A DNA stretch of 64,000 nucleotides from a candidate division CPR3 bacterium 4484_211 (GTDB taxonomy: Bacteria > Patescibacteriota > 4484-211): contig MZGJ01000006.1 in NCBI GenBank assembly GCA_002084955.1, forward strand, positions 2,027 to 66,026. Reading direction: 5' to 3'. The position numbers and the translations under genes are program-made. Below the pieces are notes generated by a model. That model had not been told where the DNA came from, ran no database searches, and worked only from the letters and a program-made list of their open reading frames with translations. Below, one piece after another: positions 42,309-64,000 of the stretch. Each line of letters begins with the position of its first letter. Position 1 is the stretch's first letter.

Positions 42309-42866
42309 ATGGCTTTTGGTTCGGGGTTCCGTTTCACGGGGGTGAAATTCTGTAAGAAGAACATATCCGCTGTGGGGCAGGGGAGCTTCACTTTTATCGT
42401 GTCTATTCTTGCTACAAACCGTAAGGCATATTATCTCTTTAAGATTCTTAAGGTTTATGAAGCAGGCATCCAGCTTGAGGGGTGGGAGGTGAAATCTATA
42501 CGGCAGGGCAGGATAAGTTTGCGGGACAGCTTTGTAAAAATTATCAATTTTGAGCCTTTTTTGATTAATGCCTACATTCCTCCCTATCAAAGGGCCCAAG
42601 GTAGCGGTGTAGATACCCGTCGACCCCGTAAGTTGCTCTTGAAGAAAAAAACTATTCTTTTTCTCAAAAATGAGCTCAGCAAAAGGCACTTGACAATGGT
42701 GCCCCTGAAAGTGTATACTAAGCGGCGGTTGTTGAAGGTGGAAATAGCTTTGGTAAAGGGAAAGAGGGGTTTTGAGAAGAGAAGGGAGGAGAAGGAGAGG
42801 AGTGTGCGCCTGCGGTTGGAGAATGATGTTGAAGAAGCGTTGGGGATGGCGTTGGGGAAAGAGTAG
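42309..42866 (+). CDS. smpB: SsrA-binding protein SmpB (start uncertain)
   Basis: ATNRKAYYLFKILKVYEAGIQLEGWEVKSIRQGRISLRDSF…RRPRKLLLKKKTI…KRHLTMVPLKVY matches SmpB. Confidence 0.8.
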   Translation: MAFGSGFRFTGVKFCKKNISAVGQGSFTFIVSILATNRKAYYLFKILKVYEAGIQLEGWEVKSIRQGRISLRDSFVKIINFEPFLINAYIPPYQRAQGSGVDTRRPRKLLLKKKTILFLKNELSKRHLTMVPLKVYTKRRLLKVEIALVKGKRGFEKRREEKERSVRLRLENDVEEALGMALGKE

Positions 42867-42944
42867 GCTTGTTTGCCCTGGCGTCGGTTGTGTTGTGGGG
42901 TGTGATTTCGCCAATGGCGGGTAGGTCTTGCCGGGTCTCTTTGT

Positions 42945-43303
42945 GGGGATGACAAGGATCGACGGAAAGGCAGCTTAAAAATTGCAAACCGAGAATGGTC
43001 TTACCTCGTAAAAATAGACCGTAAAATACACGGCAACGATTATCAGTTTGCCCCCGCTGTCGCTTTTGCGGCTTAAGCGGGCGCCGCTGTTTCTTTTTCT
43101 TAGCAAGGAAACAGGGGTGTTATATACGCTAAGAAGAGGGTAGATTGTTCAGTTATCATCTATTCCTTATCTAGTTTATAGCTGAAATTTTGGGAGAATA
43201 AGGAGTTGGCCGCTTACCCAAAATTATTTTTGGCCAACTAAGTTTGTAGAGAATTTTTAAGTTTCGTTTCCGGACGGGGGTGCAATTCCCCCCATCTCCA
43301 CCA
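42945..43303 (+). ncRNA. ssrA: tmRNA (ssrA)
   Basis: 5' GGGGATGACAAGGATCGACGG… and 3' …GGACGGGGGTGCAATTCCCCCCATCTCCACCA (tRNA-like domain, T loop, acceptor pairs with the 5' end, CCA). Candidate tag ORF …GGC AAC GAT TAT CAG TTT GCC CCC GCT GTC GCT TTT GCG GCT TAA gives (G)NDYQFAPAVAFAA. Adjacent to smpB. Confidence 0.8.
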
Positions 43304-57040: not shown

Positions 57041-57793
57041 CTATCTTGACACTTCATAAAGTTGTACCAGCGGTTCTTCCCAACCAAAACAGGTTTCTTT
57101 GCCCGCCAGCTTTTTAAATGTTTTGATGCATTTTGGTTCAAGCTGGGCAAACTTTTCCAAAATGTCCACTACTTCACTCATAAATCCGCCAACAGTTCCG
57201 TCAGAATCATCAATGCCGCCAGTTTGTAATTTTCTGTCCAAACGCAGGAGCAAATTAACCAATAATTTCGCTGTTTGTTGGCTTGCCGGAAGTTTTGAAA
57301 CAATTGAAGTTAAACGCCTGCATCCTTCGGAAAGCGAGTCTTGGTAGGCGAACCAAGTTCGGGATGGGCCCCGATACGGTTTTATGTACCTCATTGCTAA
57401 AGTAATGGATTTTTTGACGGCGGCTAGTTCTTCTGCGGTTAGTTCTCCCGTCTTGCCACTGCAAACCGGCCTGCCTATCAATTCTTTTTCCTCTTTTTTC
57501 AGTGGTTTGCCGTTTTTAACCGCGTAAATGGCCACGGCGACCATATGTTTGCAAAGAATATTTTTTTGGCCAAGATAGCACTCACAATGGCCATAATCGT
57601 AGCGCCGGGCCTCCACGAAAACTCGGTAAGGTTTGGTGCCGAGGACAACAGCCGAGTAGGATCTGATTCCTTCTTCAAATTGAGTTACTTTTCCGCTTTC
57701 ATACAGCCCAACAGCTCTTTTAAAAGTCGGCTCATCGGTGGCAAACTTGATTTTGTCAAGATCGTAATCCGGCGGTTGAATGTTCTTTGTCAT
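57041..57793 (-). CDS. SWIM zinc-finger protein
   Basis: GHCECYLGQKNILCKHMVAV is a canonical CxCx(n)CxH SWIM motif; ATGA overlap with the upstream nuclease gene. Confidence 0.55.
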   Translation of the reverse strand: MTKNIQPPDYDLDKIKFATDEPTFKRAVGLYESGKVTQFEEGIRSYSAVVLGTKPYRVFVEARRYDYGHCECYLGQKNILCKHMVAVAIYAVKNGKPLKKEEKELIGRPVCSGKTGELTAEELAAVKKSITLAMRYIKPYRGPSRTWFAYQDSLSEGCRRLTSIVSKLPASQQTAKLLVNLLLRLDRKLQTGGIDDSDGTVGGFMSEVVDILEKFAQLEPKCIKTFKKLAGKETCFGWEEPLVQLYEVSR

Positions 57794-58548
57794 TTTTCTT
57801 TCTGTTTAATTAGTTGCCTATATTTACAGAATTCACAATCAGGGCTTGGGGCGGGAATATCCTCGCTTTCAAGACATTTTTTAATTTTAATAATTGTTGG
57901 TTCCACCCAGGAATCGTCGCCTTCGTGGGATAAAATCATCAACTCAAACTCCAGGCGGCCGTCAAATTTTGGTCGGTTTCGACCGGCATTGGCAAAAACA
58001 AAGTAGCCGGTCTTGTTGACCTTAAAGCCTTTTTGCCTAAAGATCCACTGATAGATTTCCAATTGTTTTTTATATCCTTGTTTATATTCATCATCCAAAG
58101 AAATTTCTTGACTGGTACTGGTGGATTTATAATCAACAATCAGGAGTTCTCCTTTTTTATTTACCCAAACATCATCAATAATTCCGCAGATTTCTAAATT
58201 GGTTGGCCGGTGAAGCGTTGAAGCGCCTTTGAAACGATAATGGTCATCCCGCCACTCAGGCAGGTCCGGATGATTAAAAGGAATTGCGTCTATTCCGTAT
58301 TGGTTCATCAATTCGTGCTTTTCTCCATTTTGCCGTAGAAGATCAAACTCGTTTTTTAAAAGTTGATCCACGGCGGAGTTTAGGGCGAATCCCGGCATGC
58401 TCGGCCGCCCCAAACCCAGTCTTCGATCTAAATAAAAACACCGCGGACATTCCAAGAATAGATCAATCTTAGAGCGACTAAGCTTAAACGGCTGCTTGGA
58501 GTTGGGATTATATCGAGATTTTTCTTTTCTCTGCTGGTATTTGTTCAT
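57790..58548 (-). CDS. Cas4/RecB-like PD-(D/E)xK nuclease with a predicted [4Fe-4S] cysteine cluster
   Basis: N-terminal …LSRSKIDLFLECPRCFYL (Cas4-type S.S…CPR motif); IDDVWV…ELLIVDYKST (D, E, K catalytic triad); C-terminal C-x12-C-x2-C (KKCLES…PDCEFCKY). Confidence 0.55.
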   Translation of the reverse strand: MNKYQQRKEKSRYNPNSKQPFKLSRSKIDLFLECPRCFYLDRRLGLGRPSMPGFALNSAVDQLLKNEFDLLRQNGEKHELMNQYGIDAIPFNHPDLPEWRDDHYRFKGASTLHRPTNLEICGIIDDVWVNKKGELLIVDYKSTSTSQEISLDDEYKQGYKKQLEIYQWIFRQKGFKVNKTGYFVFANAGRNRPKFDGRLEFELMILSHEGDDSWVEPTIIKIKKCLESEDIPAPSPDCEFCKYRQLIKQKEK

Positions 58549-58699
58549 TTCTTTATTTTACCACCCGCCTTCCAAAAACACAGCGCTATCTATAATCCCG
58601 AGACGCAGTGGAGATTTTACCTTAAGTGAAAATTTTACCTTAAAGGTACGAAGATTGACAAAATTAACAATTACGATAATATAGTATTAAAGCGTGTCC

Positions 58700-59039
58700 C
58701 AGGTCTGGGCGCCCGCTCTTTTTTATTATCAAATCTTCCTCAATAAATTCTTGTCAATTATTTTTATCAACTCTTTATTAGCGTTAGTAGCATTAGGGAC
58801 GGGGACAAAAATGATTGATAAATCAATAAAAAAGATTGGTATTTTTTAAATAATCTTAAACAACAAAGTTTAAAAACCAATAAAATAATTAAAAATAATA
58901 AGTAATAAAGGTAATAAGTAAAAAATCATAAAGAAATAAAAAATAGGCCAAAAATAAACTGATATATCAGTATTTTCTAGCCCCGTCCCTGAGTCCATCT
59001 TGATTTTTGAAAAATGTGCTTGTCGATAGCGACAATAAA
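58700..59039. other. AT-rich low-complexity boundary segment at the edge of the AT-rich island, with 10-bp GC inverted repeats AGGGACGGGG (58795-58804) and CCCCGTCCCT (58981-58990)
   Basis: Compositional break read by eye; simple AATAAGTAATAAAGGTAATAAGTAAAAAA repeats. Confidence 0.4.
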
Positions 59040-61601
59040 TTAACCCCAACTGTCAATCATAGCAATGAGGACATTCTTGATATTTTGATTTTTTGTTCTA
59101 GACATAGCTTTTAATTCTCTCTTCTTGGGCATATTATCTAATTGATTCCAAATCCATTTATTTTTATTTAAAAAATTTATATATTGAATCTTTTCATCTT
59201 GACCTACCTTTTTTAATTTATTATATAAATCTTCAAATATTCTTTTTGCTGAAACGCTATCGGGAGATAACGATAATAAATCCTGACGATCAATAATTTG
59301 TCCAATATTTTCTATTAAGATATCTTTCTTCTGATCTAAAATAACTTTCCAAAACTCCCCATTTTGTTTCAAAATTTTATTGTTAGCGAAATTAATAATT
59401 TCTAATAAAAAATGAAAATCAGTTACACTTTTTAAAGCTTTAACAATCTGCCTTTGTAGATCCTCCATATCGAAAGGCAACTTATCTATATTGTTTTTAG
59501 CCCAATTCCATACATCTTGATTTCTTTCCTGTATGGATTGAAAAATGTTTTCTTTTAAATTTTCTAATGACGTAGGGCTGTATTTATTAAGTAATTGTAG
59601 TCTTTTTTCACTCAAGTCAGAATTATTAATATCTGCTGTAAAATCATTTATTAATTTTTTTGATATATCCTGGAAATTACTTGTAACTATTTTTAAATCC
59701 AATTTTGTGAATATATCGCTCATTTTGTGCAAAGCGTCAGATTTGTTCTCATCATAATATGCCACCAATCTATTAAATATTATTGTGGAAGCGAAAATTC
59801 CAAATTTATTGTCAAAATTTAAATTGTTGATATCTTCTAATGTTAAATTAAATTTATTTAAATATGACCGGGTTTGTTTAATCTTAAAATTGTCCAGCCA
59901 TTGCCAATAAGCGTAATAAAACTCAACCTTTTCATCAACTGGTTGACTCTTAATATAATTAAAGTCATATTTCTGTAACCCTTCTAGAAACTTACTTTGG
60001 GGCAAAGTATCTGCATCTATATCGATCAAAGCTTTGATTAATGTCAAAAAAATATTTTTCTTTTCACTCAAATCAGTTGCTTCATCATTAAGTTGATAAA
60101 ATGCATCCAATGCTTCATTTAATTTTTTTCCTCCACTCAATAATAAAGACTGCTTAACATCATCTGAATTACCCTTTTTAAGATACTGTTTAAAATCTTC
60201 TGGCAAAGGGCCTCTGGAATCTCCAAAACTAGCATCAGCGGCAAAATATAAAAATGTCTTTATTGACTTTACAGCGGGGCCGTATTGATTGTGAAATCTC
60301 GGTTTTTCAAATAAAAATTTCTTTATAAAAAGAAGCTGGGCAATGGATAATTTTTCCTTAAATTTTTCTAATATTTTATCAATGTTTTTATTGTCTTGCT
60401 TTTGAACAGCATATTCTAGATTTGATAAAATTTCACTATTTTTTAAAATTTCCTCAAATAAAGGATTACATAAATCCTGTATCATTAAACTACGAATAAC
60501 AAGTAGTGGATTATCCTTTAGTTCTTGTAAATATTCTTTTTCTTTTCCGTTATCATTATTACTAATTTGATTATCTACAACTTTAAAGCTAAATAAGACT
60601 GTATCCAGAAATCTAATTATATGCCTAAAATTCTTTTCAAAATATAAATTTAAATAGTTTTTAAAAATAATTAGATCACCTTCATTAAAAATTCTTCTAA
60701 ATTCTTTTCTCTTTCCTATTTCATTGTTAATAAAGATATCTATCTCAATTTTTAATGGCAGTGGCAGACGCCAATAGACATTAAATATTTTTTTAAGAAA
60801 TCTTCTTCCTTCATCAATTTGTTCCGCAACACTTGAATTCGGCAATAACTCTATACCGAGATACCTTTCTAATACAGAATGATCTCCAGTAACAACAAAG
60901 GATAATTTTTTATTATCAAAAAAAGTCCTTAAATTGTCTAACGTATCTTTAGCAATGCCGGGTGTTACGCGGTCTAAATCGTCGACAAAAATAACGACCC
61001 TTTTATCTTTTATATTTTGAAGAACTTCGTTTAATTTTTCTTCAAACCTATCTAGGGTGCTAATTGCTTTGCTATTTTTCTGGGTAGAAATAAGTTTTCC
61101 TACAATTGCTAAAATCACAGGTATAAGGATAAGAGTTAAAATCCATTTTATTTTAAGAAATTTATATAAAATTTCTTGTGGGAAGTAAAAATAAACTATT
61201 ATTATCCAAATTAATATAAGCAAGACAAACAATAACCATCCAGGATGAATTCTACTTTTCGATTCATCATAGTAAAACTCCTCAATGAAATTTTTGTTAT
61301 TTATCCAGTTTCTTATTCTTTTTAGTATATTCGGTTGATAATATACAGATAATGATTTTATAAAATATCTTAAAAAAGAGATTTTATCCGTTGCGAATTT
61401 CCACGGATTTATCCATATTGGATCCTCAAATTCCCTTTTTTTCAATTCTTTAGCCAGCTCTTTTAAGAATGTTGTTTTTCCCTCGCCCCACTTACCAGAA
61501 ATGCCAAAAATATAAGACTCACTCTCATCATCTTTATTATGATTATTGCTGATAATTTCAGCTACGTGTTTTATAAAATTTTGCCTATTTTTTAATTCCA
61601 T
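59040..61601 (-). CDS. KAP-family P-loop NTPase (853 aa)
   Basis: Walker A GISGKWGEGKTTFLKEL; two TM helices inserted after Walker A (…GWLLFVLLILIWIIIVYFYF… and …WILTLILIPVILAIVGKLI), which is the KAP hallmark; Walker B VVIFVDDLDR; long helical C-terminal region; very AT-rich codon usage. Confidence 0.75.
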   Translation of the reverse strand: MELKNRQNFIKHVAEIISNNHNKDDESESYIFGISGKWGEGKTTFLKELAKELKKREFEDPIWINPWKFATDKISFLRYFIKSLSVYYQPNILKRIRNWINNKNFIEEFYYDESKSRIHPGWLLFVLLILIWIIIVYFYFPQEILYKFLKIKWILTLILIPVILAIVGKLISTQKNSKAISTLDRFEEKLNEVLQNIKDKRVVIFVDDLDRVTPGIAKDTLDNLRTFFDNKKLSFVVTGDHSVLERYLGIELLPNSSVAEQIDEGRRFLKKIFNVYWRLPLPLKIEIDIFINNEIGKRKEFRRIFNEGDLIIFKNYLNLYFEKNFRHIIRFLDTVLFSFKVVDNQISNNDNGKEKEYLQELKDNPLLVIRSLMIQDLCNPLFEEILKNSEILSNLEYAVQKQDNKNIDKILEKFKEKLSIAQLLFIKKFLFEKPRFHNQYGPAVKSIKTFLYFAADASFGDSRGPLPEDFKQYLKKGNSDDVKQSLLLSGGKKLNEALDAFYQLNDEATDLSEKKNIFLTLIKALIDIDADTLPQSKFLEGLQKYDFNYIKSQPVDEKVEFYYAYWQWLDNFKIKQTRSYLNKFNLTLEDINNLNFDNKFGIFASTIIFNRLVAYYDENKSDALHKMSDIFTKLDLKIVTSNFQDISKKLINDFTADINNSDLSEKRLQLLNKYSPTSLENLKENIFQSIQERNQDVWNWAKNNIDKLPFDMEDLQRQIVKALKSVTDFHFLLEIINFANNKILKQNGEFWKVILDQKKDILIENIGQIIDRQDLLSLSPDSVSAKRIFEDLYNKLKKVGQDEKIQYINFLNKNKWIWNQLDNMPKKRELKAMSRTKNQNIKNVLIAMIDSWG

Positions 61602-61604
61602 AAT

Positions 61605-64000
61605 TTAATTATTATTCTCAACAATCTTAATTTCTTCCTTTGTCAAGCCATAAAGTTTATAAACCAACTGGTCAATTTGTTTTTCGTATTCGCGGACTTT
61701 GGCTTGTTTGGCAGGGTTTTCTAAATAATCATCGTCTTTGGTAATGGCGAGGATTTTATCAACGAGGTCAATAAATAGTTTTTGTTCGTCTTGTGAAATT
61801 TTAATGATTGGAAGCTGTTCTATATAGATTGAAAAGTGTCTAATACCCCTTACTCCAAGCTGAGATGAAATCATCTTATAATACAAATTTATAAGAGAAG
61901 AATTGAGGATTGCGCATAAATACTTAACAGCATTCCCGGTTAAAAAATATGCGGTATTTGCAAGATAGTAACCATCTATGTCTAGAGAAAAAGTAAGGCG
62001 TTGTGCTATGTCGGTATAAACAATTTTTTCTTTTTCAAATTCTTGATGGTATGCAATATTATCTTGAGTTTCAAACCATTTATTACCTGTTTTTTTTCTA
62101 GCACCTTTTTTGCCGCTTTGTTCTAATCTTTGTTTTCCAAACGATAATAAGTAATTTTTCACTGCCGGATATTGATCTATATCAATATGTAAACTTGGAA
62201 AAGTAGCAATCAACCACAACCCAGCCCAGCGGTAGTAGTAGCGGCCAATGTCTCTGCCGCGAAGTATCGGTTTTAGAATTTCTTTGGATTTTGGATCTTC
62301 TCGGCACAAGTGCTCTTTGGTTGGCGTATCAATAATGAATGCTTTGTTAAAGCCGGTTTTAATTCCATAATTTATTTTTACAGCCCAATCTTTTAACGGC
62401 GTACCTGCCCGTTCAATTTTCTGTTTAATCTTTAGGGTTTTCTCATCCACCAAAGACCAGCCGCTATCATTAAGATGCTTAGAATTAATGTATTGCTGGT
62501 GTTCTGCTAAATAAGTAGAAAGATTTTCGCCGGTAAAATCGGGTTCTATATCTACAAACGGAACTTGATAACTTCCCACTGGAATATCCTTTTGTAAAAT
62601 AATCACATTAGTATCAACGGTGGCTTCAAAAACTTTATGTCCGTTGAAGTCAATGAGCTGAAGGATTTTTGTCTTTTCTTTGAAAAAACGTCTTAATTTT
62701 TCCCCATATTTTGCCCGCAACCACTTGTTGCTGGAGATAAATGCGAGAGTTCCTTTGTTTTCCAACAAATTGTAGCTTTTTTCATAAAAATATGTATAAA
62801 GGTCAGAAGTGGAGTTGTACACTTCATATTTTTGCAAAGGCGGTTTTTGATCTTTGATTTTCTCCTGCCTCACATACGGCGGGTTGGCGATGACTACATC
62901 AAACCCGCCCTTTTCATCAAAAACCTCATTGAAATTTAAGTGCCATTCAAAGTGGTCTTCTGGAGAAGTGTCTTTAATTTTTTCCAACTCTTGGACTTTT
63001 TTCTTTAGTTTTTTGACCTCTTTTGTTTCAATCTCTCCAAGAGTCAGGTTTTCAGGGCCTAAAGAAAATAAGCTTTTTTGAGCCTTTAAGTTAGCAAGCA
63101 AGTTCTTGCTTTGTTTAAGTTCTTTAGCTTTATCGTAATTAGCAATAAAAACTATTAACTTATTAATTTGATCTCTTAAGTTTTGCTTTCTTTTTCTATT
63201 AGTCGCTTCAAAATACTGATTTTTTAAATCGTTCAGTTTATCTATCAATTTATTTTTCTCTTGATCTGTCCCTTTTCTAACTAAATCAGGAGATAATAGT
63301 TCAATTAAACTATTGCCCTGCATAATTTTGTAATCAAGATTGGGAAGAGGTTTAATTCTTTTAATATCTTGTTCATCAACAATAAGTGAAAGCCAAAGCC
63401 TTAGTTTGGCAATTTCTACTGCTCCCAAATCAATGTCAACACCATAAAGAGATTTTTGAATGCAGTCTCTTTTTAGATCATAGAGAGAAACGTTCTTATT
63501 GAGAACAAAAGCCAGTCTTTTTCTTGCATTAACTATTTCATTTAGCATTCCTACTAAAAAAGCTCCGGATCCACAAGCCGGATCACATACAAAAATACTT
63601 TCTAGGGTATCATCTAATTCCTTTGCCTCTTTTTTCCGTAGATTCAAAATCGAACCATCAACAATATGGTTCTTTCTTCCTCCTTTCTTTCTAAATTTTC
63701 GATAATCTCTTTTTGTGATTGGCTTGGGATTAATCAAGGCATTAATCTTCTTTTTATCTAAGCAAGTTTGACTAATTAAGTAGTTGATTAGGCTTTGCTG
63801 GCACATATAGTGGACAATTTCTCTTGGCGTGTAGTAGGTGCCCTTTGATTTTCTATCCTTTACTTCCAGCAGGTTTTCAAACACTTTCCCCAACATTTCC
63901 GGGTCAACAGCAACCTCTTTATCAAGAGGTTCATCTTCTTTGACGGTGAAGTTATAGCGGTCAAAAACATCCAGTATTCCGGTTCCAGTATCTCCTTCTT
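61605..64000 (-). CDS. gamma-class N6-adenine DNA methyltransferase with a large C-terminal (TRD-like) extension; N-terminus outside the window (type IIG/ISP/BREX-PglX-like)
   Basis: LGKVFENLL…GTYYTPREIV (motif X), VCDPACGSGAFLVGM (motif I), VIANPPYVRQE (motif IV), then more than 400 aa; the frame stays open (no stop) from the annotated Met at 63896 to the window end at 64000, so the protein is longer. Confidence 0.8.
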   Translation of the reverse strand, partial: EGDTGTGILDVFDRYNFTVKEDEPLDKEVAVDPEMLGKVFENLLEVKDRKSKGTYYTPREIVHYMCQQSLINYLISQTCLDKKKINALINPKPITKRDYRKFRKKGGRKNHIVDGSILNLRKKEAKELDDTLESIFVCDPACGSGAFLVGMLNEIVNARKRLAFVLNKNVSLYDLKRDCIQKSLYGVDIDLGAVEIAKLRLWLSLIVDEQDIKRIKPLPNLDYKIMQGNSLIELLSPDLVRKGTDQEKNKLIDKLNDLKNQYFEATNRKRKQNLRDQINKLIVFIANYDKAKELKQSKNLLANLKAQKSLFSLGPENLTLGEIETKEVKKLKKKVQELEKIKDTSPEDHFEWHLNFNEVFDEKGGFDVVIANPPYVRQEKIKDQKPPLQKYEVYNSTSDLYTYFYEKSYNLLENKGTLAFISSNKWLRAKYGEKLRRFFKEKTKILQLIDFNGHKVFEATVDTNVIILQKDIPVGSYQVPFVDIEPDFTGENLSTYLAEHQQYINSKHLNDSGWSLVDEKTLKIKQKIERAGTPLKDWAVKINYGIKTGFNKAFIIDTPTKEHLCREDPKSKEILKPILRGRDIGRYYYRWAGLWLIATFPSLHIDIDQYPAVKNYLLSFGKQRLEQSGKKGARKKTGNKWFETQDNIAYHQEFEKEKIVYTDIAQRLTFSLDIDGYYLANTAYFLTGNAVKYLCAILNSSLINLYYKMISSQLGVRGIRHFSIYIEQLPIIKISQDEQKLFIDLVDKILAITKDDDYLENPAKQAKVREYEKQIDQLVYKLYGLTKEEIKIVENNN

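Follow-up and report, generated by a model that had tools for sequence, protein, structure and literature searches.

A putative two-gene restriction core with an appended KAP-family NTPase in a candidate division CPR3 genome

The 64,000-nucleotide stretch of candidate division CPR3 bacterium 4484_211 analysed here (the window) ends in an AT-rich island in which a gene for an N6-adenine methyltransferase is followed, 3 nt further on, by a gene for a KAP-family NTPase. A preliminary description of the window had put the two forward as a candidate defence module. From gene content and conserved motifs, we consider it probable that the locus is a layered island: a two-gene restriction core, made up of the methyltransferase and a PLD-nuclease/SNF2-helicase encoded beyond the window, to which an NYN protein and a self-sufficient KAP NTPase have been added. 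Each piece of the locus belongs to a known kind. The KAP subfamily, marked by a C-terminal domain of its own, is new; so are the evidence that what is widely annotated as “type IIG” is in fact a two-gene system provided with accessory slots, and the tendency of KAP genes to occupy the 3′ ends of restriction operons, several types of which are involved.

The locus was extended by an exact-sequence look-up of the KAP protein, which returned two contigs carrying the same genes, a 50-kb one from ENA (L001) and another of 8 kb; L001 and the window encode identical KAP and methyltransferase proteins. L001 carries miaA on the opposite strand and then, all on one common strand, a 119-amino acid (aa) open reading frame (ORF), a PLDc_2+SNF2+Helicase_C protein of 1062 aa (L001:2644-5832), an NYN protein of 174 aa, a 33-aa ORF, the methyltransferase (1149 aa), the KAP NTPase (853 aa), a 491-nt spacer, a Cas4-like PD-(D/E)XK gene, a SWIM protein gene and a TrpR-like gene. 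The complete methyltransferase gene (L001:6548-9997) is intact and no pseudogene, with its N-terminal 352 aa outside the window. Its features within the window are:

61605–64000, minus strand: C-terminal 797 aa (of 1149) of the methyltransferase, in an ORF open to the window edge; identified by Pfam.
63558–63584, minus strand: motif I (S-adenosylmethionine binding), DPACGSGAF, aa 491–499; found by regular expression on the translation, (near-)invariant in a 62-sequence alignment.
62874–62885, minus strand: catalytic motif IV, NPPY, aa 724–727; the family alignment shows no variation at N724, P725 or P726.
61806–62273, minus strand: TaqI_C-type target-recognition domain, aa 928–1083; Pfam PF12950, 1.5e-15 with the full protein.

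The part of the protein encoded in the window matches Pfam Eco57I (3.5e-42), N6_Mtase (1e-19), TaqI_C (4e-15) and MmeI_Mtase (2e-12). Together with motif I, NPPY and the open reading frame, these matches bear out the preliminary description, which had recognised a gamma-class N6-adenine methyltransferase running off the window. The methyltransferase and a fused target-recognition domain share a single chain, as in type IIG enzymes, and the PADLOC type IIG model (REase_MTase_IIG, PDLC03596) scores 1161 bits, with matching stretches that include model positions 1–453 and 697–1144 of 1148; none of the PADLOC models for PglX, DrmMI and MAD2 comes near this score. The AlphaFold2 (AF2) model of the methyltransferase (pLDDT 80) predicts an alpha/beta domain in the N-terminal 170 aa. 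Its best full-length fold match is PglX/BrxX (~1100 aligned columns, E ~1e-24), followed by BpuSI and MmeI (~1e-17), and the match to CamA is confined to the half of the protein that holds the methyltransferase and target-recognition domains.

We consider single-chain type IIG cleavage by this protein doubtful because no catalytic (D/E)XK motif is conserved in the N-terminal domain: D75 is invariant and K82/K83 are common, and position 80, where the acid of the motif is expected, is Y, Q, H, K or S. A PDB sequence search with aa 1–380 returned no match. A type IIG, type ISP or PglX-like architecture had been proposed from the window, and of this the PglX-like fold and the type IIG model match stand; a stand-alone IIG or ISP enzyme does not, as the methyltransferase is the second gene of a helicase operon. 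The family is large, with at least 8000 matches, and relatives at 50–60% identity occur across the candidate phyla radiation (CPR), Elusimicrobiota, Nitrospirota, Aquificota and Asgard archaea. The recognition domain is the part that varies among homologs, and many matches span only ~55% of the query.

Two relatives carry an inverted partial copy of the recognition domain directly after the methyltransferase gene (L126:11365-12255 and L119:8448-9119, both minus strand), and in L119 a DNA invertase gene adjoins the copy. These copies suggest specificity switching by inversion, which has been reported for the Cj0031/Eco57I-like enzyme class (PMC9881135).

The helicase is a constant companion of this methyltransferase family. 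Exact-protein look-up placed a PLD-SNF2 gene upstream of the methyltransferase in 7/7 loci, most pairs overlapping by a few nt, and two of the seven have a small intervening gene (Bro-N in L113, KilA-N in L120). Among 11 distinct IMG/VR loci with upstream sequence, nine have an intact PLD-SNF2 gene and the other two have helicase fragments. L016 and L030, which were reached via their KAP genes, also carry it, and each of the three distant plasmid relatives encodes a large helicase within the methyltransferase operon. The partner helicases are ~1060–1100 aa long and are present across phyla in every sampled relative with upstream sequence, the two fragments included. The PLD catalytic H-x-K…GSSN is kept in 9/9 of them, along with GLGKT and DEAH motifs. 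The PLD-SNF2 and Eco57I/PglX-like pair, judged by adjacency, co-orientation and motifs, is found in L001 and likewise in L016, L030, L111–L116, L120–L122 and L124–L137. A methyltransferase and PLD/SNF helicase pairing is listed in passing in a table of PMC9881135; we found no named system for the pair in the literature.

Domain content and conserved motifs lead us to infer that the two genes of the core form an ATP-dependent system resembling restriction-modification, with a division of labour between their proteins. The Eco57I/PglX-like methyltransferase would read its target via the TaqI_C domain and methylate host DNA, and the PLD-SNF2 partner would act as translocase and nuclease against unmodified DNA. 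The cleaving nuclease is probably the PLD domain of the partner. The preliminary description had asked what lay beyond the window edge, with a nuclease or helicase domain at the methyltransferase N-terminus in mind; the extension did recover a PLD-SNF2 helicase and an NYN protein, the helicase being encoded by a separate gene and not by the methyltransferase N-terminus.

The second gene encodes a KAP NTPase of 853 aa with a hairpin between its Walker motifs, as had been noticed in the window, and PF07693, motif positions, hydrophobicity and the AF2 model all agree on this. Its features are:

59040–61601, minus strand: KAP-family P-loop NTPase, 853 aa, ATG start; Pfam PF07693, 89.1 bits (cutoff 20) over residues 6–297.
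61473–61505, minus strand: Walker A/P-loop GISGKWGEGKT, aa 33–43 (GKWGEGKT at aa 36); G33, S35, W38, G39, G41 and K42 are invariant in 95 sequences.
61092–61241, minus strand: transmembrane hairpin, hydrophobic helices at about aa 121–141 and 150–170; Kyte-Doolittle 19-aa windows peak at 2.84 and 2.57.
60969–61001, minus strand: Walker B VVIFVDDLDR, aa 201–211 (FVDDLDR at aa 205); D207, D208, L209, D210 and R211 are invariant.
59043–60284, minus strand: all-helical C-terminal region, aa 440–853, exclusive to this KAP family.

The AF2 model places the hairpin helices at residues 120–139 and 152–170, and the insertion of the hairpin between Walker A and Walker B is kept in 90/95 family members. 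The C-terminal 414 residues returned only 70 clusters (at 50% identity) in an exhaustive search of 1.84 billion representatives. In roughly full-length matches this region is always at the C-terminus, and the shorter matches resemble fragments. The family comes mainly from Patescibacteria. A motif, AAD-x-SFGD-x-RGP (aa 453–465), has an invariant G464, and at least 90% of the sequences keep D456, D461 and R463; it sits in a loop, modelled with lower confidence, that separates the NTPase module from the helical C-terminal half, and is a candidate arginine finger or interface.

The methyltransferase and KAP genes are co-oriented and 3 nt apart, as the preliminary description had read them in calling them a probable operon; both are on the minus strand, which that description did not state. 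Two features bear on this:

61602–61604, minus strand: 3-nt spacer from the methyltransferase TAA to the KAP ATG, read from the sequence as GAG AAT AAT AAT TAA att ATG.
59020–59035, minus strand: terminator-like hairpin TTGTCGCTATCGACAA followed by a T-run, 5 nt past the KAP stop codon; the probable operon end.

Nothing resembling a terminator separates the two genes on the minus strand. They are almost certainly co-transcribed, and the 3-nt junction suggests translational coupling.

We wondered what a KAP NTPase might contribute at the end of a restriction operon. In the layered island that we favour, it would be a self-sufficient, membrane-anchored NTPase defence module appended at the operon 3′ end, with no role as a core subunit, and would be expressed with the operon by termination-reinitiation at the 3-nt junction; the NYN protein, in its internal position, would be a similar add-on. 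The hairpin-anchored KAP ATPase, related to ORC, STAND and RdrA, would use NTP binding or hydrolysis as a switch controlling the family-specific helical C-terminal half, which would be the sensor or effector. In this way KAP would add a second layer, one that works without a nuclease, directed at phages able to escape restriction or inhibit it, and is possibly a backup layer on restriction operons. Its action may be abortive infection, membrane perturbation or another. Protection of Enterococcus from phage has been shown for single KAP NTPases whose C-terminal regions are unannotated, and depends on Walker B and the C-terminal region (PMC13552941); Tmn, described as a KAP defence protein of the transmembrane kind, acts in synergy with systems that contain an ATPase, PrrC among them. 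The preliminary description's “RM enzyme plus Abi-like KAP effector” comes near to this reading, with the amendments that the methyltransferase is tied to a helicase-nuclease encoded beyond the window and that the KAP is facultative.

Seen from the KAP gene, a link to restriction-modification (RM) is visible in the gene neighbourhoods. A directly upstream, co-oriented RM gene is present in 9/30 distinct loci of the full-length KAP family, against 6/220 genes at least 4 positions away (odds ratio 15, Fisher p 5e-6, a p-value that is indicative only, the RM reference set having been built partly from neighbours and the loci being phylogenetically related). The upstream partner belongs to the methyltransferase family of the window in four loci (L001, L013, L034, L115), is a type I HsdR/HsdM in three (L004, L007, L018), an EcoRI-like methyltransferase with a GmrSD/HNH protein in L006 and a D12/N6_N4 methyltransferase in L015. 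The gap between the RM and KAP genes is −4 to +35 nt in seven of the nine and ~280–290 nt in L015 and L034, compared with ~100–650 nt upstream of most RM-unlinked KAP genes; the short linked and long unlinked gaps fit a gene able either to use its own promoter or to ride an operon. There are also partial cases: in L016 a 189-aa gene lies between the two, in L030 two opposite-strand genes do, and in L028 a 29-aa remnant of a methyltransferase C-terminus stands just upstream of the KAP gene.

At the DNA level, L028:7245-7331 closely resembles L001:9900-9990, and the KAP proteins of the two loci are 44% identical. Either constraint on the C-terminal motif combined with AT bias, or a recombination anchor through which downstream cassettes are swapped, could account for the likeness. 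The C-terminal motif of the methyltransferase is nearly invariant in the family and the L001 and L028 genomes are both AT-biased, which may be enough to explain it.

The linkage might nevertheless be without function, with KAP a defence or selfish gene that accumulates in islands and finds permissive landing sites at operon 3′ ends. This would account for the ~60% of KAP loci that have no RM neighbour, for KAP GC contents unlike those of the neighbours in several genomes, and for the high variability of the slot downstream of the methyltransferase. RM-unlinked KAP genes adjoin tyrosine or serine recombinases, terminase-like, Schlafen or housekeeping genes. KAP is also cargo of a recurrent element comprising a large serine recombinase (~440 aa) and a ParB_N + N6_N4 methyltransferase (~445 aa). 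The ParB-methyltransferases of L004, L008 and L030 are 67–70% identical to the copy in L012, with further homologs in L114 and L123, and a large serine recombinase is near the ParB-methyltransferase in L004, L008, L114 and L123; the unit looks like a widespread CPR mobile element, often with KAP next to the recombinase. (One copy of the ParB-methyltransferase element is classed as viral in IMG/VR.) Against a purely positional association stand the enrichment at the directly upstream co-oriented position, the overlap or gap of at most 35 nt in 7/9 RM-linked loci, which implies co-expression, and the spread over at least three RM classes, with six loci of one methyltransferase family when L016 and the L028 remnant are counted. 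PrrC, embedded in a type I locus, is a precedent for functional linkage. We judge an association without function to be fairly unlikely.

The opposite possibility is that KAP is a true third subunit of a tripartite BREX- or BR-like system, taking the BrxC/DUF499 role (assembly, loading or sensing) and tethering the complex to the membrane at the site of phage DNA entry. The helicase-methyltransferase-KAP triad does occur in distant lineages (L001, L016, L034 and L115/L116, with a near-triad in L030), with junctions as tight as 3 nt (L001) or a 4-nt overlap (L115). BR/Hma and BREX systems likewise combine an ORC-like ATPase, an N6-methyltransferase and a (HKD-)SNF2 helicase (PMC12839542), and the methyltransferase fold matches that of PglX. 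Seen from the methyltransferase, however, the slot behind it is rarely occupied by KAP: among ~22 loci sampled without reference to KAP, one has a KAP gene directly downstream, on the Hydrogenobacter chromosome CP076323.1 (L115/L116). This KAP overlaps the methyltransferase by 4 nt (L115), is 22% identical to that of the window over the NTPase domain and lacks the hairpin, so the triad is tied to no single architecture. Elsewhere unrelated genes, several of effector type, fill the same slot: SIR2_2 (L122), DUF3800 (L121), ORF6N (L113), an AAA_15/AAA_21 ATPase (L132), a LEM-3-like GIY-YIG domain protein (L124) and proteins without assigned function (L111, L114, L127). The internal slot between helicase and methyltransferase is comparably mixed, with NYN (L001), Bro-N (L113) and KilA-N (L120).

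The KAP proteins themselves point the same way. Genomic contexts are interleaved in their neighbour-joining tree, and the nearest relatives of the window KAP (41–44% identity) occur with an integrase, in serine-recombinase/phage-like surroundings, with an AIPR gene or in a near-triad. Coupling to type I systems, which need no KAP to be complete, is seen in this KAP clade too. A true third subunit seems decidedly unlikely to us. The pairing of methyltransferase and KAP does recur in other genomes, as the preliminary description had suggested checking, and its low frequency, with KAP also found behind other RM systems or alone, does not fit a dedicated two-gene system.

A third alternative, that KAP is a non-defence, membrane-associated housekeeping or signalling NTPase of CPR bacteria and a chance neighbour of the restriction system, could draw on the diversity of roles of KAP NTPases across life and on a C-terminal domain without known function. 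It fits poorly with a family as patchy as this one (70 clusters at 50% identity among the 1.84 billion representatives), with its atypical composition, with its association with recombinases, phage-like and RM genes, with its placement in variable regions without conserved synteny with core genes, or with its PADLOC matches to PifA, QatA and PDC-S20. We regard it as very improbable.

Some points weigh against the layered island that we prefer, beyond the limits on the enrichment given above. The N-terminal domain of the methyltransferase could be an atypical nuclease. The low GC of KAP, which lies below that of the adjacent RM genes in five of the seven loci compared (L116, L007, L004, L018 and the window; not clearly in L016 and L006) and reaches 0.283 against 0.36–0.38 for the RM genes in the Hydrogenobacter example, is partly a family trait and no proof of separate acquisition here. 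Divergent KAPs (20–30% identity, one without the hairpin) recur behind the same methyltransferase family, which could reflect an old functional partnership. Finally, collections of cultured phages and plasmids gave no detectable match to the KAP family, so all of its contexts come from metagenomes; a scan of metagenomes yielded distant KAP N-terminal domains for the most part, with few additional full-length loci (L031–L038).

A bolder generalisation, which we offer tentatively and with a low expectation that it is right, is that membrane-anchored KAP NTPases are widespread guard or backup modules of restriction and that, in CPR and further bacteria without cultured members, they are translationally coupled to at least three RM types of different mechanism (type I, type II/IV-like and the PLD-SNF2/PglX-like pair). 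They might sense restriction failure or inhibition, like PrrC, or tether and activate the restriction machinery at the membrane, at the point of phage DNA entry, as a BrxC-like ATPase would. Such a role would fit a 2004 suggestion, as relayed in PMC13552941, that prokaryotic KAP proteins belong to membrane-associated complexes restricting foreign DNA.

If the layered island is correct, the locus would be a concrete, testable case of immunity in layers among the CPR/Patescibacteria, whose genomes are tiny. The common “type IIG” annotation (at least 8000 homologs) would then mark a helicase-nuclease plus methyltransferase system whose accessory slots can be mined for new effectors, and a possible rule, that KAP NTPases are appended to several types of restriction operon, could explain how KAP is triggered. 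Should KAP be no more than a hitch-hiker, this would be an ordinary defence island.

The island is set off by its composition. GC content per 500-nt window is ~0.38–0.46 up to 58.5 kb, 0.25–0.31 over 58.75–61.5 kb and 0.30–0.38 from there to 64 kb; the mean is 0.44 for positions 1–58548 and 0.308 for 58549–64000, with a break at ~58.6 kb, so that the sharp drop placed at about 58.7 kb by the preliminary description is confirmed. On the extended contig the low-GC tract measures ~10.6 kb, of which the window holds the distal half only, and its composition is tiered: 0.41–0.45 in the flanks, 0.34–0.36 in the helicase, NYN and methyltransferase genes (methyltransferase ~0.35) and 0.27 in KAP, with a GC of 0.23 at third codon positions. 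Horizontal acquisition, also proposed earlier, is supported by this composition. In a simple position-wise comparison of window 41039–64000 with L001:7602-22562, 12778/14961 bases are equal; one or more indels outside the studied genes probably set the two assemblies apart.

One further feature marks the distal edge:

58549–59039, no strand assigned: AT-rich spacer, GC 0.30; the compositional island edge, adjoining the Cas4-like gene.

The spacer contains an imperfect inverted repeat (58795–58825 and 58960–58990; arms of 31 nt, 77% complementary) with the GC cores AGGGACGGGG and CCCCGTCCCT. The GC inverted repeats that had been taken as a possible island edge are real, and nothing marks them as the end of an element. 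No integrase or recombinase is encoded between miaA and the Cas4-like gene in L001, the spacer and island edges have no Rfam or tRNA match, L001 has no tRNA, and no direct repeat of at least 12 nt is common to both borders. The integrase and att repeats sought on the extended contig at the earlier suggestion were thus not found at the island borders, nor was a tRNA target, and among the signs of a mobile element or genomic island it is the compositional one that was found.

Several other elements were seen around this edge. A tandem 18-nt direct repeat (AGTGGAGATTTTACCTTA / AGTGAAAATTTTACCTTA; 58607–58642) lies ~60–95 nt upstream of the start of the Cas4-like gene (58548); it overlaps a promoter-like site on the minus strand (58661–58632) and could be an operator. 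On the plus strand, 58655–58722 holds a near-consensus promoter-like site, TTGACA-16-TAATAT, followed within ~12 nt by a GC hairpin and T-run (58694–58712); no ORF or Rfam family was found at 58655–58722. The Cas4-like PD-(D/E)XK gene overlaps a 250-aa SWIM-zinc-finger gene by 4 nt (window 57041–58548, minus strand), and the N-terminus of the SWIM protein matches the PADLOC candidate PDC-S62 (1.5e-15). A Cas4-like gene, 48% identical, is directly upstream of the helicase-methyltransferase-KAP operon in L016 (L016:3-581); the gene may be a member of the defence neighbourhood or a hotspot marker. Further away, 42309–43303 contains a likely smpB ORF, identified from its translation alone, directly upstream of a transfer-messenger RNA gene with the tag peptide GNDYQFAPAVAFAA, an ordinary housekeeping arrangement.

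We compared the locus with described systems. The closest relatives in kind of the KAP protein are the single-gene KAP defences (EF_KAP, PMC13552941; Tmn; PifA), with which it shares a KAP domain, transmembrane helices, a large C-terminal region without known domain, and a self-contained ORF near recombinases and in defence islands. Unlike in those defences, its C-terminal half is unique to the ~70 clusters and its family is often translationally coupled to restriction operons, a coupling absent from those papers, and it is no sequence-level member of any of them. Its six PADLOC matches, to PifA, QatA and PDC-S20 models, are partial and at the level of the P-loop, below that of a family: PifA reaches 60.8 bits, with its best stretch over residues 11–71 only, the PDC-S20 matches are also partial, and no Tmn model is among the six. 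Membership in PifA, Tmn or PDC-S20 was rejected, there being no full-length profile match. Qat was likewise rejected, the NCBIfam QatA score being 63 bits against a cutoff of 600 and L001 containing no QatB-, QatC- or QatD-like genes. RdrA of RADAR differs in having an RdrB adenosine deaminase partner, which the KAP locus lacks, and is 13–16% identical.

The locus resembles BREX in the full-length PglX-like fold of its methyltransferase and in the likeness of KAP to BrxC and ORC-like ATPases, and type-2 BR systems in having an HKD nuclease N-terminal to an SNF2 helicase plus an N6-methyltransferase and an ATPase. It differs from both in that its ATPase is facultative and that no gene for PglZ, BrxA/B/C/L, DUF499, DUF1156 or DUF3780 is present at the locus. 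BREX was rejected (the NCBIfam PglX profile, BREX_1_MTaseX, scores 118 bits where 500 are required, and L001 encodes neither PglZ nor BrxC), and the PglX resemblance, a property of the predicted model, bears on the working mode of the methyltransferase and not on BREX membership. Also rejected were DISARM class 1, with partial likeness to DrmD (1.6e-36) and DrmMI (2.4e-36) only and no DrmA or DrmB gene; Hma/DUF499-centred BR, whose HmaB (DUF1156) and HmaC (DUF499) are absent, the methyltransferase here being of the Eco57I type and the ATPase a KAP, and of which only an HmaA-like SNF2 match (1.2e-24) was found; and type I as the enclosing system, whose core genes are missing or score below threshold.

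Type III and type ISP enzymes offer a parallel for the core: a target-recognising gamma- or Mod-like methyltransferase combined with an SF2 ATPase and a nuclease, probably with ATP-dependent translocation before cleavage. Here the nuclease is PLD and not PD-(D/E)XK and the motor is of the SNF2 type; the system is split over two genes, unlike type ISP, and its methyltransferase family differs from the Mod of type III. The Cj0031/Eco57I-like “type IIG” enzymes with a PLD/SNF helicase (PMC9881135) have the same two-gene arrangement, gamma-class motifs and TaqI_C domain, and share with some relatives of the window methyltransferase the inverted spare copies of the recognition domain; they differ from it at the N-terminus, where the window protein lacks the conserved (D/E)XK.

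For the add-ons, the comparison is with PrrC and RloC in type I loci and with the auxiliary effectors of BREX, DISARM and type I (10.1101/2024.01.29.577857; PMC12839542). Unlike PrrC and RloC, KAP is predicted to be membrane-anchored and has no recognisable nuclease or HEPN effector, and any physical or regulatory coupling to the restriction enzyme is putative. Like them, it is an NTPase accessory gene co-located and co-expressed with restriction, and the locus family resembles these systems in offering variable slots both inside the operon (NYN, Bro-N, KilA-N) and at its end (KAP, SIR2, DUF3800).

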